Part shown: one piece after another, positions 1 through 5,820 of the stretch
How positions within the stretch are numbered: position 1 is the stretch's first letter
Layout: every line of letters begins with the position of its first letter
IMG/VR virus record: IMGVR_UViG_2778261643_000001
Span: 1 to 5,820 of that record
From: a virus
Lineage: Duplodnaviria > Heunggongvirae > Uroviricota > Caudoviricetes
Strand: one strand, 5' to 3'
Length of the DNA: 5,820 nt
Position numbers and translations under genes: made by a program
The notes under the pieces: model-generated
What the model saw: the letters and a program-made list of their open reading frames with translations, nothing else
Databases searched by the model: none
Told to the model about the DNA's origin: nothing

Positions 1-392
<392 letters not shown>

Positions 393-393
393 G

Positions 394-416
394 AAAAGCC
401 CGGCGTTCGGGCTTTT
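394..416. terminator. Bidirectional rho-independent terminator between the convergent plus-strand gene and the minus-strand operon
   Basis: Stem GCCCG (398-402) / CGGGC (408-412) with a 5-nt loop, flanked by AAAA (394-397) and TTTT (413-416). Either strand therefore reads a GC stem followed by a U-run. It sits between the stop at 390-392 and the stop of the minus-strand gene at 439-441. Confidence 0.7.
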
Positions 417-438
417 CTGTTATGACGGGTTCAATTTT

Positions 439-1413
439 TTATCCGTTACCGCGCGACGGTTTCTGCGTGATAAACGTCTCAAGCATCTTTTCCGCAATTG
501 CCGACCAGGTGTGACACTGGACCTTTTCAGCATTTTTCACGCGATCAACGCGAGCAATAACCTCATCCCAATCAATCCGCGACTTGATAACCATATGGTT
601 CACCAAAGCCAGGCGATCTGGCGGAAGGCAATCGGGAGGCGTTAATACCAACGCCCCGCACATTGCCGCCTCAAGTACAGTTAATCCAAGGCTTTCGGGA
701 TGCGTAACGATAAACACGTCACTCTTACGCAATTCAGCTGCAAATTCGGTTGCTGGTACCGGCGTCCGTCTGTATGGGGTTACCGATATATTCCCCGGAT
801 CAATGGTAATCAATCCGTCATCGGTCAACGTTCTGGCCTCATACGGAACGGTCAGACGCTGAAGGTTCATAAGGATACTTAAGGAGTGATCAAACCCACT
901 AACATCAAATGCAGCGTGGTCTACAAAAATACGCAGAACATCGTCTGTTTTGGTTTCCAGATGGAACAGATCCTGATTCGCTGCCCATCCAACATGTTTG
1001 TTAAAGCGATTATGACGCTCTAACCTGCCTGGATTATCCAGGTACCGCCAGGTATCATCGCGGACAGTAAAAGTAATATCGACTGGTGCCGAATCCAGCA
1101 TAGAACCGTCGTATACCTGGGCTACCCATCCAGTGAATCGACGACGCAGTTGCACGCCTATTTCCCTGGGCACCGTAGTAAAATACCGCAATCCTGGCGC
1201 TAAAATGGCTTTCGCAGAACACGAGGTCGCAGCGGTCAACACAGCTTCAACATAATCCTCCGGGCTTTCGACGCCGGGGGAATATGGACGATGGTATTGC
1301 AATGTTACCCCTGCCTCACTAAAGGCGCAGGCCAGGTTGTAAGCCCACATTTCCGTATATGTTTTCACATCACTGATAGCTTCAAATTTTCGCCCAATGA
1401 TCAGGATGTTCAT
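439..1413 (-). CDS. dbn: GT-B fold (GT1/GT4-like) glycosyltransferase-like protein, about 324 aa; alternative upstream start at 1437 overlapping the helicase stop
   Basis: Long minus-strand ORF. The ATG at 1413-1411 is preceded by GAGGAAAAG with about 7-8 nt spacing (strong RBS); the ORF-track start at 1437 forms TAATG with the helicase stop. N-terminus MNILIIGRK and C-terminal region SDVFIVTHPESLGLTVLEAAMCGALVLTPPD resemble the conserved E-x7-E region of retaining GT4 glycosyltransferases. The symbol is from my recollection that the gene downstream of ban in P1 is called dbn; it has not been verified by search. Confidence 0.75.
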   Translation of the reverse strand: MNILIIGRKFEAISDVKTYTEMWAYNLACAFSEAGVTLQYHRPYSPGVESPEDYVEAVLTAATSCSAKAILAPGLRYFTTVPREIGVQLRRRFTGWVAQVYDGSMLDSAPVDITFTVRDDTWRYLDNPGRLERHNRFNKHVGWAANQDLFHLETKTDDVLRIFVDHAAFDVSGFDHSLSILMNLQRLTVPYEARTLTDDGLITIDPGNISVTPYRRTPVPATEFAAELRKSDVFIVTHPESLGLTVLEAAMCGALVLTPPDCLPPDRLALVNHMVIKSRIDWDEVIARVDRVKNAEKVQCHTWSAIAEKMLETFITQKPSRGNG

Positions 1414-1436
1414 CGGCTTTTCCTCATTCCATTGCA

Positions 1437-2801
1437 TTAATAATCCTCTTGCCAGTCAGCACCAGCATAGTTATCAAACCGTGAGTATTGGCCGTTAAAA
1501 GCCAATCTCACCGTGCCAATTGGGCCATTTCGTTGCTTTCCGATAATTACCTCGGCAATGCCCTTCATTTCGCTATCCGGGTGATAAACTTCGTCGCGAT
1601 ACAGAAACATGATCAGGTCTGCGTCCTGCTCAATTGCTCCTGATTCACGTAAATCTGAATTTACCGGTCGTTTGTCCGCACGCTGTTCAAGCGATCGATT
1701 AAGTTGTGACAATGCCACCACCGGTACTTGTAATTCCTTCGCCAACGCCTTCAGTGAGCGAGAAATCTCGGCAATTTCCAGCGTTCGGTTATCTTGCAGC
1801 TCGGGGACGCGCATAAGTTGCAGGTAGTCGATCATAATCATGCTCAAACCACCATTTTCTTTATAAACACGACGAGCGCGGGAACGAAGCTCTGTAGGTG
1901 TCAGGGCGCTTGAGTCATCAATAAAAATATTCTGCTTGTCCAACAGAATCCCCATTGCGCCAGAAACCCGCGCCCAATCCTCGTCGTTAAGTTGCCCTGT
2001 TCGAATACGAGTCTGATCAACGCGTGCAAGAGAAGCCAGTGAGCGCATCATCAGCTGGTGGCTCGGCATCTCAAGGCTAAAAACCAATACGGGCTTATCG
2101 TTACGGACTGCGGCATTTTCGACGAGATTCATCGCAAACGTAGTCTTCCCCATCGATGGGCGGGCGGCGACAATAATGAGATCGGACGCCTGAAGTCCTG
2201 CCGTCTTCTTATTGAGATCGGTAAATCCGGTATCAAGCCCCGTTACACCATCATGCGGTCGCTGAAACAACTCTTCTATGCGAGATACCGTTGCATCGAG
2301 AATGCTGGCGATATCTTTTGGACCACTACCGCTCTTTTGTCGTTTTTCAGCTATTTCAAAAACGCGGCGCTCGGCCATATCCAGCAATTCATTGCTGCCC
2401 CTGCCATCCTGCGCATATCCAGCTTCGGCTATTTCATTTGCGACGGAAATCATTTCACGAACAACCGCGCGTTCACGAACGATATCCGCATAAGCACAAA
2501 TATTTGCCGCGCTGGGCGTGTTCTTTGACATCTCCGCAAGGTACGCAAAACCACCGGCGCGTTCTAATTTACCGTTCTGTTCAAGTGCTTCAGCAAGTGT
2601 TATCAAATCAATCGGTTTGCCATGACTTAATAACCTCTCCATCTCACTGAAAATTTCACGATGAGCACTGGTAAAAAAATCATCAGCAACTATACGATCT
2701 GCAACTTCATCCCAGCGGCAGTTATCAAGCATTAAGCCACCAAGTACAGCTTGTTCTGCACTAAGGGAATTTGGCATGGATTCAAGAGGGGATGCAGACA
2801 T
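1437..2801 (-). CDS. ban: DnaB-family replicative DNA helicase, phage P1 Ban-like; likely start at ATG 2801, with an in-frame GTG at 2807
   Basis: The translation aligns by eye along its whole length with E. coli DnaB: SAEQAVLGGLMLDN, AARPSMGKTTFAMNLVENAA (Walker A), LIMIDYLQLM, VPVVALSQLNRSLEQRADKRPVNSDLRESGAIEQDADLIMFLYRDEVYH, IIGKQRNGPIGTVRL. The N-terminus is shorter than host DnaB, as I recall for P1 Ban. GGAG lies 5 nt upstream of the ATG at 2801. The context of three tRNAs, a lipoprotein and a coupled downstream gene argues for a phage paralogue, not chromosomal dnaB. Confidence 0.93.
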   Translation of the reverse strand: MSASPLESMPNSLSAEQAVLGGLMLDNCRWDEVADRIVADDFFTSAHREIFSEMERLLSHGKPIDLITLAEALEQNGKLERAGGFAYLAEMSKNTPSAANICAYADIVRERAVVREMISVANEIAEAGYAQDGRGSNELLDMAERRVFEIAEKRQKSGSGPKDIASILDATVSRIEELFQRPHDGVTGLDTGFTDLNKKTAGLQASDLIIVAARPSMGKTTFAMNLVENAAVRNDKPVLVFSLEMPSHQLMMRSLASLARVDQTRIRTGQLNDEDWARVSGAMGILLDKQNIFIDDSSALTPTELRSRARRVYKENGGLSMIMIDYLQLMRVPELQDNRTLEIAEISRSLKALAKELQVPVVALSQLNRSLEQRADKRPVNSDLRESGAIEQDADLIMFLYRDEVYHPDSEMKGIAEVIIGKQRNGPIGTVRLAFNGQYSRFDNYAGADWQEDY

Positions 2802-3086
2802 TAGCACTCCACCCAGGCGTGCTGAATGTCAGATATAATCGGCATACTCAAATCACTCCTAACGATATGAGTCATCACCAGAAAATCAGGATTAATGCGC
2901 CGGACTCTTCCCGGCTGTCACACCGAATCGCCAGGATGGTGAGTCCCTGAATCCGCTATCCCTCCAACGGTGACTTGCACATTCCGGCTACCTGGTTTGT
3001 TGCCTGAGCTAGGGGAAAAGGCAATCCCTTTAACGTCACCAGACCGCTAACGACGCATGTGCCAGACGCCGTGTTACAACCAAATA

Positions 3087-3162
3087 TGGTGGCCCCTACC
3101 GGACTTGAACCGGTGACCGTGCGATTATGAGTCGCCAGCTCTAACCACTGAGCTAAAGGGCC
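3087..3162 (-). tRNA. tRNA-Ile2-like, anticodon CAU (presumed lysidine-modified, AUA-decoding); tRNA-Met not excluded
   Basis: Minus-strand sequence GGCCCTT-TA-GCTC-AGTGGTTA-GAGC-T-GGCGA-CTCATAA-TCGCA-CGGTC-ACCGG-TTCAAGT-CCGGT-AGGGGCC-A-CCA folds as a 76-nt cloverleaf with encoded CCA. The acceptor and D arms closely resemble E. coli ileX as I recall it. P1 is reported to carry a tRNA-Ile (tentatively trnI). Confidence 0.88.
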
Positions 3163-3189
3163 GGATTACTGCCAATTTTGCTTACGCTT

Positions 3190-4017
3190 TTATTTCACCG
3201 GAACAAACGGAACAGCGGCATTACTGGTCATATACTGCGGTAATGTACCGTTCCATTTGTTGATCGCTTCCAACTCCATAACACCGGGGTTCTGGCGCAG
3301 AGCTTCACCACGTAAACGAATGGCATCAGCTTCGGCCTGGGCTTTTGTGCGAATAGCATCAGCCTGTCCGGCAGCTTCCGCGCGCAGCATGTTGGCCTCT
3401 GCTTCACGTTGTTTGACCTCTTGCTCGCGTTGCAGGGTTTTTTGGTTTGCCGTGACTTTGGCGTTAATACTGTCAATAACTGTTGGCGGGTATTCTGGCT
3501 TACCTACATAAGAGAGGCTCATCACCTGAATGCCGATTGGCGTCATTTCTTCCTGAATGTCTTTAAGGGCTGCATCAAGCAATTCAGATTTGCCACCGTC
3601 GATAAATTTGTCGGTGGTCATTTTGCTGGCTAACCGGTTCAGAGCATCTGCAACCTTCTGGCGTAGATCGGTATCAGTAATATCATCTACACCTTTGCGA
3701 TAGGTCTGAAATACCGTTGTGACTTTTGCTGGATCAACCTTGTAGGCTACGCCGATGTGGTAACCAATGGTTGTTCCGTCGCTCATCTGGAAGCTGAACG
3801 GCTCATCGTATGTCTTCATTTGCTTAAAGGTCGGGAAGATATAAACTTCAGTATTCAAGCCTGTCCAGTAGCGACCAACGCCAACTACTTCACCGATACC
3901 TTTATCATCCCCCAGCTTATTTACTTTGATCCCTACGTTACCTGGCTCTACCCGATCGCATCCGGTCAGGCATAAAGAACCCAAAATAATCGCTGCACTA
4001 ATCAACGTTTTTTTCAT
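3190..4017 (-). CDS. SPFH/Band-7 (stomatin/prohibitin-like) domain lipoprotein with C-terminal coiled-coil, 275 aa
   Basis: N-terminal signal peptide with lipobox (MKKTLISAAIILGSLCLTGC, Cys at the +1 position). The central region reads like an SPFH domain and the C-terminus is an Ala/Glu/Arg/Gln-rich predicted coiled-coil (QREQEVKQREAEANMLRAEAAGQADAIRTKAQAEADAIRLRGEALRQ). RBS AGGA lies about 9 nt before the ATG. It may correspond to the P1 'putative lipoprotein' (plp), but that name is a tentative recollection. Confidence 0.85.
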   Translation of the reverse strand: MKKTLISAAIILGSLCLTGCDRVEPGNVGIKVNKLGDDKGIGEVVGVGRYWTGLNTEVYIFPTFKQMKTYDEPFSFQMSDGTTIGYHIGVAYKVDPAKVTTVFQTYRKGVDDITDTDLRQKVADALNRLASKMTTDKFIDGGKSELLDAALKDIQEEMTPIGIQVMSLSYVGKPEYPPTVIDSINAKVTANQKTLQREQEVKQREAEANMLRAEAAGQADAIRTKAQAEADAIRLRGEALRQNPGVMELEAINKWNGTLPQYMTSNAAVPFVPVK

Positions 4018-4234
4018 TAATTAATTTCCTGGTTTTTTCACGAAAAAAGACTACTGCGAAAGCCGGGTAAATGAGCGCAAGAAGGACTCCCAACAATACA
4101 AGTATTGTGCTGTTAGATGAGATCATATTTGGCAAAAGCCAAACATACAGAACCAGTGACACAATCAAACAGAGGACGGCATAAATATATAACCGCACCC
4201 ATAGCGTTCGACATTTGTTCGGATTGTTCTGCAT
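3998..4234 (-). CDS. Small two-TM inner-membrane protein (78 aa) overlapping the SPFH lipoprotein start by 20 nt; likely co-translated partner
   Basis: Two hydrophobic segments (LYIYAVLCLIVSLVLYVWLL and STILVLLGVLLALIYPAFAVVFF) with a basic C-terminal tail. GGAG lies about 9 nt upstream of the ATG at 4234. The 3' end overlaps the downstream lipoprotein gene. SPFH proteins are commonly encoded with a small membrane partner (NfeD-type), although this protein is too short to carry an NfeD OB-fold. Confidence 0.6.
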   Translation of the reverse strand: MQNNPNKCRTLWVRLYIYAVLCLIVSLVLYVWLLPNMISSNSTILVLLGVLLALIYPAFAVVFFREKTRKLINEKNVD

Positions 4235-4393
4235 CCTCTCACTCCATTATTTAACGAATAAAAAAGCTGCGGTGCCGGGTGCCTCCCGGTGTCCTTTGGC
4301 TGGTTATCCACCGTGGACGGGGAAACAAGGAGAAATGAATGGACTGATATAACCATTTCCCCGCGTGCGCTTAGCCGCATTCACCGCAACGGA

Positions 4394-4453
4394 AAGAGCA
4401 TTCTTGGTGGACCTGTAGATTGGGATATGAACCCGTTACAGGAGAATGCTCTT
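4394..4453. repeat. Nested-hairpin repeat element, copy A: 11-bp outer inverted repeat enclosing the conserved core GTAGATTGGGATATGAACCCGTTACA (4415-4440)
   Basis: Outer arms AAGAGCATTCT (4394-4404) and AGAATGCTCTT (4443-4453) are exact reverse complements. Inside, CCTGTA (4412-4417) pairs with TACAGG (4437-4442), and GGG (4422-4424) pairs with CCC (4432-4434) around a 7-nt loop. The core is 24/26 identical to 5095-5120. Confidence 0.6.
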
Positions 4454-4516
4454 ACCTGTTGCGTACTCCGTTTCATGGAGTTAACGGCGGACTAACCATC
4501 CGCCCCAAATTTATAA

Positions 4517-4930
4517 TTAGCTGCTTGCTGACGGATAGTTTTTGGTTAATTGGACCAAGCGAGCATCAAGAGCTTTTCGATAATCAATCATGCTTCCGAG
4601 CTGAATTTCCAAATCCAACTGCTTGCACTGGTCTATAGTGAGGAATTTATCTGTTCCAATGAATCGAACAAGCTTATTTATGCGCTGGCATAGCTGAGCA
4701 CGTTCGATAATCATTCGCTTGTGGTATTCCTCCAAGCCGTCAATTTTGCCCAACGGAGCTGCTATTTCATTAAATTCACGAAGTGGTATTTTGAGTTCGT
4801 TACCGAACACATCTACAACATCAATTTCAGATGCATCTTCTTTCGAAACTTTATCGACCTGATAACTGGTGCTAACCACTAAAGAAATAACAAACTGCTC
4901 TTTCTGCATAATTACCGTTCTCGCACTCAT
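4517..4930 (-). CDS. Hypothetical protein, 137 aa (130 aa if started at the ATG at 4909); no recognisable family
   Basis: Uninterrupted ORF in a stretch that looks somewhat lower in GC than the helicase region by hand count of a 100-nt sample of each. Neither candidate ATG has a convincing Shine-Dalgarno. It is bracketed by the two near-identical repeat cores at 4415-4440 and 5095-5120. I do not recognise any motif in the protein. Confidence 0.5.
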   Translation of the reverse strand: MSARTVIMQKEQFVISLVVSTSYQVDKVSKEDASEIDVVDVFGNELKIPLREFNEIAAPLGKIDGLEEYHKRMIIERAQLCQRINKLVRFIGTDKFLTIDQCKQLDLEIQLGSMIDYRKALDARLVQLTKNYPSASS

Positions 4931-5047
4931 GGGTGACAGTTTCTAAATAAATTGTGATGGTCGGTGCTGAACTCCGACACAGGGTTGTAGCAAGCCCCGC
5001 AAAGCGCGCACTACTGTAGTTGCGGCACATCAGCCTGTGCATTCACC

Positions 5048-5139
5048 ACAACGTTGAGAACACTGATTGTCACGCTGCAACGCAACATTTATTCGTAGAT
5101 TGGGATATGACCCCGTTACGCCAGTGTTCTCAACGTTGT
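5048..5139. repeat. Nested-hairpin repeat element, copy B: perfect 18-bp inverted repeat (5048-5065 / 5122-5139) enclosing a 56-nt spacer with core GTAGATTGGGATATGACCCCGTTACG (5095-5120)
   Basis: ACAACGTTGAGAACACTG and CAGTGTTCTCAACGTTGT are exact reverse complements. Inside, CGTA (5094-5097) pairs with TACG (5117-5120). Compared with copy A the closing pair changes T:A to C:G, a compensatory change, while the 22-nt interior stays almost identical. Confidence 0.6.
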
Positions 5140-5285
5140 AGTGCCGGTTACGGTTCCGGCCAGGCCTCTTCCTCAACGGGGTGTTCTCCATACGGACTAC
5201 CGTTTATTGGTCGTTCCTGCGGTTTATGTTGTGAAGCCAGATGCTTATCTTCTGGTTGCTTCTAAGAGCTGCACTTCATCACAAC

Positions 5286-5359
5286 GGTAAGGGTACTTCG
5301 TAGGGATTCGAACCCTCTGCCAAGCACGGCGATCTCCGACGTCGCAAAATACCCTTACC
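5286..5359 (-). pseudogene. tRNA-like pseudo-element: a canonical T-arm (GGGTTCGAATCCC) inside a perfect 10-bp terminal inverted repeat (GGTAAGGGTA / TACCCTTACC); not a foldable canonical tRNA
   Basis: The minus strand reads GGTAAGGGTA...GCAGAGGGTTCGAATCCCTACGAAGTACCCTTACC. The 10-bp terminal helix and the T-arm are clear, but I cannot place a D-arm or anticodon arm at canonical distances, and there is no encoded CCA. It lies 8 nt downstream (in transcription order) of tRNA-Thr. Confidence 0.4.
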
Positions 5360-5367
5360 TGTTGTGT

Positions 5368-5443
5368 TGGTGCCGGTTAACGGACTCGAACCGCTGACAT
5401 CCTGCTTACAAGGCAGGCGCTCTACCAACTGAGCTAAACCGGC
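5368..5443 (-). tRNA. tRNA-Thr, anticodon UGU
   Basis: Minus-strand sequence GCCGGTT-TA-GCTC-AGTTGGTA-GAGC-G-CCTGC-CTTGTAA-GCAGG-ATGTC-AGCGG-TTCGAGT-CCGTT-AACCGGC-A-CCA folds as a 76-nt cloverleaf with a 7-bp acceptor stem and encoded CCA. P1 is reported to carry a tRNA-Thr. Confidence 0.9.
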
Positions 5444-5445
5444 AT

Positions 5446-5521
5446 TGGCGATGGTGGATGGATTTGAACCATCGACCCGTTGATTAACAGTCAACCGCTC
5501 TAACCGCTGAGCTACACCATC
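5446..5521 (-). tRNA. tRNA-Asn, anticodon GUU; sequence unlike host tRNA-Asn
   Basis: Minus-strand sequence GATGGTG-TA-GCTC-AGCGGTTA-GAGC-G-GTTGA-CTGTTAA-TCAAC-GGGTC-GATGG-TTCAAAT-CCATC-CACCATC-G-CCA folds as a 76-nt cloverleaf with a perfect acceptor stem and anticodon stem. Only 2 nt separate it from tRNA-Thr. P1 is reported to carry a tRNA-Asn. Confidence 0.85.
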
Positions 5522-5650
5522 ACTTGCCGGGTACGTCTCCGGCGAGGGCTTCCACCTCCGTATGCTTTTCGGCGCACCGCGCCCTGGCTGCAATTCGGTA
5601 ACAGGGGATGCATAACCCTGGCTTCCAGCGTGATTAGCGCCTTCAGCATG

Positions 5651-5665
5651 ACGGGATATACCCGT
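5651..5665. other. Short palindromic hairpin ACGGG-ATATA-CCCGT, related to the GGGATAT..CCCGT core of the repeat family
   Basis: 5-bp stem ACGGG/CCCGT with an ATATA loop. It shares GGGATAT and CCCGT with the cores at 4421-4436 and 5101-5116. It lies about 130 bp upstream (in transcription order) of tRNA-Asn. Confidence 0.4.
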
Positions 5666-5682
5666 AGCAAGACGTTATTCCT

Positions 5683-5703
5683 AAATTGCTAAAAGCAATT
5701 GCT
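5683..5703. promoter_or_regulatory. Candidate repressor operator (P1 C1-type?) with palindrome ATTGCT-AAA-AGCAAT and an overlapping third ATTGCT; probably overlaps the promoter of the tRNA-ban operon
   Basis: Minus-strand reading ATTGCTTTTAGCAATTT matches about 13/17 positions of the P1 C1 operator consensus as I recall it (ATTGCTCTAATAAATTT). It sits in the about 300-bp non-coding region upstream of the first minus-strand gene. No comparable site lies directly upstream of the helicase gene (2802-3086). The -35 and -10 elements could not be placed confidently. Confidence 0.3.
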
Positions 5704-5820
5704 GTTACGCCGAATGAAAAAGGACGTAACAGGTAAGGACGCTGACCAAAAAGATGGCCCTGGATTTGCCCCTATATTTCCAGACATCTGTTATCACTTA
5801 ACCCATTACAGGCCCGCTGC

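Follow-up and report, generated by a model that had tools for sequence, protein, structure and literature searches.

The window analysed here, 5,820 nt of a virus of the Caudoviricetes (IMG/VR record IMGVR_UViG_2778261643_000001, positions 1 to 5,820), is the ban-operon region of a P1-like phage-plasmid, which is controlled by C1 and transcribed on the minus strand. Two hairpin repeats in this region, here called A and B, were picked out in a preliminary description made from the sequence alone. We find that A and B are paralogous copies of a modular structured RNA, that a third element, C, is another copy, and that a fourth is present in truncated form. The existence of an RNA module family on the minus strand is very likely. 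We put the probability of the complete explanation, in which these modular RNAs would be excised by RNase III and would display a mimic of the initiator-tRNA anticodon arm, at roughly 0.55.

The repeats themselves are as first described, with some revisions. Their 26-nt cores, GTAGATTGGGATATGAACCCGTTACA at 4415-4440 and GTAGATTGGGATATGACCCCGTTACG at 5095-5120, are identical at 24 of 26 positions; a search allowing up to three mismatches finds precisely these two sites in the window and no match in 200 dinucleotide shuffles. The perfect inverted repeats around the cores (11 bp at 4394-4404/4443-4453 and 18 bp at 5048-5065/5122-5139) are present, but both are longer than reported: the repeat of B extends over 22 nt with 95% complementarity (5044-5065/5122-5143), and that of A reaches ~19 pairs, interrupted by a bulged A and a U.U (4385-4404/4443-4463). 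The difference between the inner helices, TGTA..TACA versus CGTA..TACG, is also there. By contrast, the arm sequences, which had been called unrelated, turn out to be diverged versions of one basal stem: they have in common the CAAC/GUUG ends and a 3' flank, GUUGYG-RUGAA. The string GUUGYGRUGAA occurs three times on the minus strand of the window, against 0.02 occurrences expected. The repetition thus continues just outside the arms (GCATTCACCNCAACG and CCTTACCTGTTG, repeat families D1 and D4), and it is this repeat that discloses element C.

Read on the minus strand, the modules follow one plan. The 5' arm (YRCAAC-(A)-GGUAAGRGCAUU) leads into a variable apical domain (8-125 nt), after which come the 3' arm (ARUGCYCUUACC-GUUGYG) and single-stranded RUGAA; the basal helix measures ~20 bp in each module. 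Diverged arm pairs are, for example, GGUAAGAGCAU/AUGCUCUUUCC, GUUGAGAACAC/GUGUUCUCAAC and GGUAAGGGUAU/GUACCCUUACC. Module A (79 nt; 4385-4463) has its RNA 5' arm at 4443-4463 and its 3' arm at 4385-4404; its apical anticodon-arm-like hairpin, CCUGUA-AC-GGG-UUCAUAU-CCC-AAUC-UACAGG, lies at 4412-4442 and is joined to the 3' arm by the linker UCCACCA (4405-4411). Module B (100 nt; 5044-5143) has a basal helix of ~22 bp (5' arm 5122-5143, 3' arm 5044-5065; 23 continuous pairs in the minimum-free-energy fold), its own anticodon-arm-like hairpin at 5094-5121 (CGUA-AC-GGG-GUCAUAU-CCC-AAUC-UACG) and a second hairpin at 5069-5086. Module C (87 nt; 5280-5366), which starts one base past tRNA-Thr, combines a basal stem of the A/B family (5' arm 5345-5366, 3' arm 5280-5300; 21 bp including U.G pairs) with a different apical domain, which holds a T-arm-like hairpin (AGGGUUCGAAUCCCU) at 5302-5316. 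The conserved single-stranded 3' flank of A (GUGAAUGCGG) occupies 4375-4384, while the RUGAA flank runs from 5043 downward after B and lies at 5269-5279 after C. The predicted minus-strand folds are far more stable than those of shuffled sequences (-38.3 kcal/mol, z = -5.1 for A; -52.2 kcal/mol, z = -6.7 for B; z = -4.6 for C), and none of 200 shuffles is as stable as any of the three. Of the fourth module, the window holds a 3' arm (CAGCGUCCUUACCUGUUACG; 5725-5744, minus strand; apical type T01). Its counterpart in P1 is complete (L001 2556-2636), whereas the 5' half of the one here has either diverged from that of P1 or falls outside the window.

How widespread is this plan? An architecture search of related loci yields 45 distinct modules of 17 apical types. 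They occur in P1 and its relatives, in D6-like phage-plasmids and in a second, unrelated group of ~105-120-kb phage-plasmids of Klebsiella, Salmonella and E. coli, which, to go by their size and by the phoH, grxA and DNA ligase genes nearby, are probably SSU5-like; the modules always lie within arrays of tRNA-Asn, Thr, Tyr, Ser or Arg genes, on the tRNA strand. Scanning IMG/VR with GGGNTCATANCCCAAT, which retrieves P1-type copies and many ~40-kb phage contigs of like architecture, adds 71 distinct modules of the anticodon-arm type, lambdoid phages included, with basal stems of 19-26 pairs. The duplication of the core, for which a count in relatives had been suggested, extends beyond the window: 56 of the related loci carry both A and B, 25 carry B only and four carry a chimera of B 5' and A 3' halves.

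The earlier proposal of a folded nucleic acid under selection for pairing is upheld by covariation in both the basal and the inner stem. Among 37 non-redundant basal stems, 96.2% of cells are paired, as opposed to 75.4% when the partners are shuffled (the observed figure is attained in 0 of 500 shuffles). Both sides have changed in 13 of 18 pairs, and pairing falls to 35-55% in slid registers. The inner stem behaves alike: six of its seven pairs have changed on both sides, 85.8% of cells are paired versus 72.3% after shuffling (again 0 of 500), and slid registers give 23-52%. RNAalifold, given 14 full-length modules, arrives independently at the same nested fold, in which 12 of 19 pairs are compensatory.

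Watson-Crick covariation by itself fits a DNA palindrome as well as an RNA hairpin; wobble pairs tell the two apart. Pairing is better on the tRNA strand in 211 of 227 modules, on the other strand in 4 and equal in 12, the orientation having been set independently by the tRNA genes; the non-redundant alignment holds 35 sense-strand G.U pairs versus 11 A.C pairs, which would be G.U on the antisense strand. Substitutions that create minus-strand G.U pairs can be seen in individual orthologues (CGUAAC/GUUGCG in copy A of P1; CGUA/UAUG in some B copies, such as that of L049), and a GGG/UCC stem with its G.U pair is found in the apical hairpin of Klebsiella phage GZ7 and Pantoea phage PA-1. Since G.U pairs favour the tRNA strand 35:11, the structure is one selected in minus-strand RNA; the wobble pairs and the tRNA strand both support the choice, made at the outset, of the minus strand as the one to read.

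This asymmetry also bears on the idea that the elements act as DNA: that they are recombination sites, recognised as cruciforms, single-stranded hairpins or conserved ends, which shuffle tRNA genes, open reading frames (ORFs) and modules as cassettes in the manner of integron attC sites or miniature inverted-repeat transposable elements (MITEs). Much in the arrays looks like such shuffling. Relatives differ by whole units (tRNA-Tyr, tRNA-Ser, tRNA-Arg, the 137-aa ORF described below, modules), the same modules sit in unrelated phage-plasmid backbones, the AAC...GTT ends are invariant and, like attC, the modules are inverted repeats, imperfect and 50-160 nt long, that keep their fold while the centre varies and that are placed between gene-sized units. 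In four loci (L097, L053, L022 and L044) the 5' half of B is joined to the 3' half of A at the core, the interval having been deleted as a unit. Unlike attC, however, the modules show RNA strand asymmetry and misfit the consensus boxes, RYYYAAC...GTTRRRY: their ends read ACGCAAC, CUACAAC and GCACAAC at one side and GUUGCGG, GUUGUGG and GUUGUGA at the other, with one to three misfits each. No integron integrase or transposase is found among the ORFs of the window, and the endpoints of the ORF insertion, 4490 and 4949, lie 26 nt and ~95 nt from the modules. The chimeras are explained by ordinary homologous recombination at the 26-nt repeats, which leaves their arms unpaired. MITE terminal repeats stay conserved and do not covary, whereas 13 of 18 arm pairs in the modules do; no flanking direct duplication of the kind expected of MITEs or repetitive extragenic palindromic elements was seen around A, B or C. 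A role as dedicated recombination sites is therefore quite improbable. Among the roles first suggested, processing of the transcript is the best reading, while the attC-like cassette logic finds no support. The repeated core is nonetheless a substrate for homologous recombination, and the arrays clearly exchange units; in their evolution the DNA level does play a part, even if the function of the elements lies elsewhere.

Could the region instead be conserved coding sequence in another frame, a possibility raised at the start? P1 annotates two genes, upl (63 aa) and plp (125 aa), on the plus strand at L001 (NC_005856) 1659-2228, with counterparts in the window at 4289-4495 and 5020-5265 (plus strand); they lie opposite all three modules. 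In-frame translation of the cores gives VDWDMNPL and VDWDMTPL, and one plus-strand ORF matches phrog_7444; the match is circular, however, because PHROGs were built from deposited annotations. The frames are not stable in length: among related loci the open length of plp is 18, 27, 44, 81, 103, 113, 125, 139, 143 or 152 aa, and upl is cut to 22 aa in the window by an insertion. The plp frame starts at TTG and runs antisense into tRNA-Thr in P1, the substitutions compensate for one another in RNA pairs, and indels of 1 and 13 nt occur. A conserved plus-strand protein with VDWDM(N/T)PL as its motif is thus extremely unlikely; the VDWDM(N/T)PL repeat is the translated RNA core, and the upl and plp ORFs, rejected as real genes on the instability of their lengths, are probably annotation artefacts.

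A different verdict applies to the ORF that the preliminary description called an orphan bracketed by the two copies. This 137-aa ORF (4517-4930, minus strand) matches Pfam PF21825 (crAss001_48-related, E = 3e-15) and phrog_15270; it is a real gene of a known phage protein family and not part of the element. It lies in an insertion of ~460 bp (4490-4949) that replaces 58 bp of P1, and its position between the copies is incidental: P1 has both copies ~280 nt apart without it. A mobile ORF cassette marked by the two copies was considered and rejected, given that the ORF occurs in only two of 549 related plasmids and that the insertion endpoints do not match the elements.

Outside the phage-plasmids, the module is common in lambdoid phages. 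BLAST finds the lambdoid form in 2776 of 5426 complete E. coli genomes, in one to five copies, and in Shigella phages SfII, SfIV and SfV, mEp460, cdtI, Stx2a and Stx2c phages, Salmonella ST64B, Citrobacter phiNP and Pantoea PA-1. Its setting varies. Klebsiella phages carry it directly after tRNA-Asn/tRNA-Arg, downstream of Q; ST64B, SfV and phiNP have it in the long non-coding leader that separates cI from the first early-left genes; and in prophage L238 it directly follows an RNA resembling the small RNA (sRNA) STnc100 and a DicF-like terminator, the U-tract of which starts the 5' arm of the module. In RefSeq the lambdoid form (e.g. L238 10318-10428) is unannotated or lies under a "hypothetical protein".

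Beyond Enterobacterales the trail is fainter. A scan of contigs from one genome per species returned 73 exact matches to the core, against ~70 calculated by chance (17 fixed bases, ~1.2e12 positions); some 30 of the 73 are Enterobacterales with full architecture, and the matches elsewhere are mostly noise, bar a few with flanking helices of 8-16 bp. These flanked 19-nt core matches come from metagenome-assembled genomes of an Acidobacteriaceae (L277), a gammaproteobacterium (L312) and a deltaproteobacterium (L271), and from Saccharibacteria (L256, L279 and L303); such helices are unlikely to arise by chance among ~40 background matches. The hairpin motif may predate the phage module or have a wider distribution.

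What does the conserved apical unit look like? From the outside in, it consists of an inner stem of 6-7 bp, AC, GGG, the loop N-U-C-A-U-A-N, CCC, AAUC and the other strand of the inner stem, usually followed by a second small hairpin. Three G:C pairs closing a 7-nt loop with U33-C-A-U-A37 are a feature it has in common with tRNAfMet, and GGG/CCC and UCAUA are present in both window copies; among independently retrieved relatives, the only departures are GGG/UCC and CUCAUUA. Three G:C pairs in the anticodon stem are a hallmark of initiator tRNAs. The commonest form of the hairpin, that of the lambdoid relatives, is GGG-CUCAUAA-CCC, identical to the tRNAfMet anticodon stem-loop: the tRNAfMet gene contains TCGGGCTCATAACCCGA / UCGGGCUCAUAACCCGA, most lambdoid modules read GACGGGCTCATAACCCAA / GACGGGCUCAUAACCCAA, and 14 consecutive bases are the same in both, with lambdoid members identical over CGGGCUCAUAACCC. 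The 77-nt tRNAfMet sequence itself is present at 100% identity in all 5426 complete E. coli genomes, in four copies per genome, annotated as tRNA-Met (BLAST). Unlike tRNAfMet, the modules have no cloverleaf; the hairpin is mounted on a 20-bp helix and not in a tRNA.

The hairpin had first been likened to a T-arm, and the end of copy A to an acceptor stem. In that interpretation, the module would be a tRNA-like minihelix, with a T-arm and a CCA-terminated acceptor stem, that RNase P or the CCA-adding enzyme would recognise in the manner of P1 C4. UCCACCA does follow copy A, and canonical T-arm-like hairpins are found in module C (GGGUUCGAAUCCC) and in several other apical types. P1 C4 RNA provides a precedent for processing by RNase P. 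The fit to A and B is poor, however. The loops (UUCAUAU in A, GUCAUAU in B, AUCAUAG and CUCAUAA elsewhere) depart from the T-loop consensus U54-U55-C56-R57-A58: any of the four bases can stand first, and U takes the fifth place, where A58 is expected. CCACCA is confined to P1-type A copies, with UUCGCCA in L008, CCACUA in L073 and no such tail in B or in any lambdoid member, and a 2x4 internal loop interrupts the helix so that no continuous 12-bp minihelix can form. In the window ARAGORN finds only tRNA-Met(cat), Thr and Asn, and the Rfam tRNA and C4 (RF01695) models, at E <= 10, find nothing at A, B or C; elsewhere the same C4 model scores 82.3 bits, in L215. A tRNA-like minihelix is accordingly very improbable.

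If the hairpin resembles an anticodon arm, does it act as one? Precedents for the principle exist: in the thrS operator and in other tRNA-mimicking mRNA or sRNA elements, an anticodon-arm look-alike within a non-tRNA transcript binds a factor that recognises tRNA. The modules likewise carry their look-alike within a non-tRNA transcript but, unlike these elements, they are repeated, phage-borne and not accompanied by an adjacent gene for a cognate factor. As a speculation prompted by the resemblance, the mimic might be a decoy for anticodon-loop nucleases such as VapC/MvpT of Shigella and Salmonella, or a ligand of the 30S P site/initiation factor 3 or of methionyl-tRNA synthetase that would retune translation initiation during phage development. 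In Shigella and Salmonella, VapC toxins do cut tRNAfMet in the anticodon stem-loop (PMC7180214). That the hairpin functionally mimics the tRNAfMet arm is nevertheless unlikely.

The proposed course of events is as follows. The helix forms in the nascent polycistronic RNA, as the covariation shows. Host RNase III would then cut this ~20-bp helix, a step suggested by its length and by the cut mapped in a homologous module of the Qin prophage. Cleavage would separate the tRNA, sRNA and mRNA segments and free the apical part as a small stable RNA; and the freed anticodon-arm mimic might, speculatively, bind a factor that normally recognises tRNAfMet or the CAU anticodon arm. RNase III accommodates ~22 bp of double-stranded RNA (PMC6212723). 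The basal helices of the window modules (~19 bp in A, ~22 in B and 21 in C) agree with a requirement for about 20-22 bp of mostly uninterrupted duplex.

The Qin module is the closest link to an experiment. In E. coli K-12 a member of the family lies upstream of dicF in Qin, with the 5' arm CCAUAACGCGAAAGCGCAUGGCG and the 3' arm CGACCGUGCGCUUCCGGUUGUGG (L243 1236-1258). RNase III processing upstream of dicF was reportedly described by Faubladier in 1990. Counting 190 nt back from the 3' end of DicF leads to ~L243 1246, inside the 3' arm of this module. A 190-nt DicF species has an RNase III-dependent 5' end and is lost in a delta-rnc strain (10.1101/2023.04.14.536235). Table S1 of Gordon et al. 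lists, in addition, an rnc-dependent site at 1649470 in the dicF-dicB spacer, with 26 reads in delta-rnc and none in the wild type; it falls inside a second long-stem domain between dicF and dicB (GUGAAUUUUGUGAUG/CAUCACAAAAUUCAU), which encloses an STnc100-like core. The Qin site belongs to the same basal-stem family (CAUAAC..GAAAGCGCA / UGCGCUUC..GUUGUG, ~22 bp), and dicBF, like the operon considered here, is a repressor-controlled early polycistron carrying sRNAs. Unlike the window modules, the Qin site has a degenerate apical domain (GGUUCAUAG rather than GGG-UCAUA-CCC), sits in a lambdoid prophage away from tRNA genes, and has been described solely as a cleavage site, never as a member of a repeated module. 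By analogy with it, the balance tips slightly towards the modules being RNase III substrates.

Stems at such positions might also work without releasing anything that acts in trans: as structural punctuation, they could protect RNA from exonucleases or, like put elements, modulate elongation or termination, the apical domains being mere baggage. Their placement fits this. The modules stand at junctions between tRNAs, sRNAs and ORFs, the U-tract of a DicF-like terminator holds the start of the lambdoid 5' arm, and the leader position downstream of cI in ST64B, SfV and phiNP is that of nutL in lambda. Yet the apical hairpin and its covarying inner stem are kept across P1-like, ~110-kb and lambdoid backgrounds, even on another type of basal stem (PA-1), a conservation that argues for a function of the hairpin's own; moreover, no canonical terminator follows in the window. 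Punctuation without a product is thus an unlikely account of the whole module. The most far-reaching version of the mimic reading is unlikely too: that temperate enterobacterial phages (P1-like, ~110-kb phage-plasmids, SfV, ST64B and Stx-type lambdoids) encode an RNase III-excised mimic of the initiator-tRNA anticodon arm that acts in trans, with the basal stem as a general "expression cassette" for swapping small-RNA payloads.

Several observations count against the modular, RNase III-excised anticodon-arm mimic. (i) The alignment of the basal stems was in part adjusted to the structure: one bulged A was taken out of rows that paired better without it, and registers were mixed. (ii) The first 6 bp and the RUGAA flank are conserved in sequence, although RNase III needs neither; alignment columns 4-6 and 35-37 (AAC/GUU) do not vary and RUGAA is nearly invariant, while the other 12 pairs covary freely. 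Another factor or a DNA-level role could lie behind this conservation. (iii) Copy A is dispensable, because in Ro157c2YLVW (L003, ~1690-1760) it lacks 13 nt (CGGGTTCATATCC), the whole GGG-loop-CC hairpin, with the basal stem intact, and because D6-like genomes have another apical domain and no A-type core. (iv) The likeness to the anticodon arm is incomplete. The anticodon stem of tRNA has five base pairs; here the equivalents of positions 27-28/42-43 are unpaired AC/AA, and a conserved AC/AAUC internal loop stands in for the two lower pairs. With UUCAUAU and GUCAUAU, the copies in the window match five of seven loop bases and both have U38; position 32, a pyrimidine in tRNA, is G in B and A in L008 and L049, and G or A is unusual there; and the ST64B loop reads CUCAUUA. 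(v) The invariance of the core is partly a matter of ascertainment, the sequences having been retrieved with the core pattern. (vi) The cut in Qin is a position mapped from the 190-nt length estimate and not a coordinate given by the authors, the site of Gordon et al. rests on 26 reads only, and cleavage of the P1 and window modules would be an extrapolation from the Qin homologue.

The modules are not alone in their transcript. At the 3' flank of module A begins an STnc100-like structured domain (4268-4388, minus strand), closed by GCGGUG/CACCGC. The STnc100 model (RF02076) aligns to it over model positions 31-147 of 206 with 37.8 bits, below the gathering score of 47, so the match is a resemblance and not membership. 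The domain is homologous to the dicF-dicB element of K-12 Qin (L243 ~1443-1600), there enclosed by a 15-bp long-range helix, and the same domain occurs in lambdoid prophage L238 (10104-10327). STnc100 and the Pas sRNAs are terminator-ended, Hfq-dependent base-pairing sRNAs (10.64898/2026.05.13.724894). The modules have the neighbourhood in common with the prophage STnc100/PasD sRNAs, an STnc100-like RNA directly preceding the anticodon-arm module in lambdoid prophages; unlike them, they have no terminator and are unmatched by RF02076. The notion that the Pas sRNAs of enteropathogenic E. coli are the modules themselves was ruled out because all Pas sRNAs end in terminators. The C4 antisense RNA of P1 is a parallel in form: it comes from the same phage, and a host tRNA-processing or RNA-processing enzyme cuts it out of a longer early transcript as a small structured RNA with a terminal helix and two hairpins. 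C4, by contrast, is cut by RNase P and acts by antisense pairing.

The rest of the window places the modules in their operon. One E. coli plasmid (NZ_CP122822.1) is 100% identical to the window over the two stretches compared, and P1, RCS47 and relatives are about 95-99% identical across most of the remainder. The P1 annotation puts the region between the C1-controlled promoters P1ban/P2ban (with the C1 operator) and ban, with the tRNAs on that strand too and, upstream of these, a "dicF-like region". Because P1ban/P2ban lie upstream of the tRNAs, the modules belong to a long early transcript that runs from right to left, and the position in a tRNA-containing polycistronic transcript, proposed from the start, is supported. 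All functional features between 3087 and 5521 are on the minus strand. Their order in the transcript is tRNA-Asn, tRNA-Thr, C, B, the inserted ORF, A, the STnc100-like domain and the downstream genes to ban. Both tRNA genes upstream of the modules, tRNA-Asn(GUU) at 5446-5521 and tRNA-Thr(UGU) at 5368-5443, are called by ARAGORN and Rfam; further downstream come a 78-aa membrane protein and a 275-aa SPFH lipoprotein (3190-4234), tRNA-Met(cat) at 3087-3162, which is tRNA-Ile2 in the P1 annotation, and Ban, a DnaB-like helicase (1437-2807). A scan of 3900-5820 on either strand found no sigma-70-like promoter and no canonical terminator. An intrinsic terminator at ~4262-4290 was considered and dropped: the terminator scanner makes no call there, and the U-run is absent from P1.

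Other pieces of the operon appear to change hands too. A conserved spacer hairpin (GAAGC-AA-CCAGA-AGAUAAGCA-UCUGG-CUUC; 5233-5262, minus strand) follows module C. A 66-nt piece comprising this hairpin and the 3' end of C (5228-5293, minus strand) is 94% identical in many ~110-kb phage-plasmids of Klebsiella pneumoniae, an identity which implies that array segments were recently exchanged between unrelated phage-plasmids. These Klebsiella phage-plasmids otherwise have little in common with P1. At 3190-4234 (minus strand) the SPFH/Band-7 lipoprotein and the 78-aa membrane protein stand where P1 carries tciA, tciB and tciC; MH422554 and Ro157c2YLVW have the same two genes in place of tciA-tciC. 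The segment is another exchangeable part of the ban operon. At the right edge of the window, CCUGUAAUGGGUU (5800-5812, minus strand) resembles the 5' half of the apical hairpin of A.

How much of this was known before? The preliminary description knew of no element with this architecture, and we find none either. No family in Rfam 15 reaches threshold on any module examined, in the window (searched at E <= 10) or at related loci; the scans return only tRNAs, the sub-threshold STnc100 match and spurious microRNA or plastid matches due to the long hairpins, and they rule out membership in the YrlA, C4 or DicF families. The literature searched, which covered the core sequence, RNAs of the P1 ban operon, RNAs of phage-plasmid tRNA regions and initiator-tRNA mimics, contains nothing on the elements, and no description of the modules is given in papers on P1 transcription, on Pas/STnc100 sRNAs or on the dicBF operon. 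The general type, a stem-loop that RNase III processes within a phage polycistron, is known already, and so is the cleavage of one member, mapped in 1990. What appears to be new is a family of repeated, exchangeable modules whose scaffold covaries, the occurrence of this family in P1 beneath two phantom genes, and a conserved mimic of the initiator-tRNA anticodon arm.

Few genomes have been studied as closely as those of P1 and the lambdoid prophages of E. coli, yet in them the module family is unannotated or labelled "hypothetical protein" or upl/plp. If our reading is true, two phantom genes would be removed from P1, the long-known RNase III cut upstream of DicF would find its place in a repeated, exchangeable processing module, and a scaffold would be defined by which phages deliver diverse small structured RNAs. 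The tRNAfMet anticodon-arm look-alike leads to a testable hypothesis, a phage RNA decoy that manipulates or protects translation initiation, and this hypothesis bears on why phages carry tRNA arrays and how they counter defences that target tRNA.

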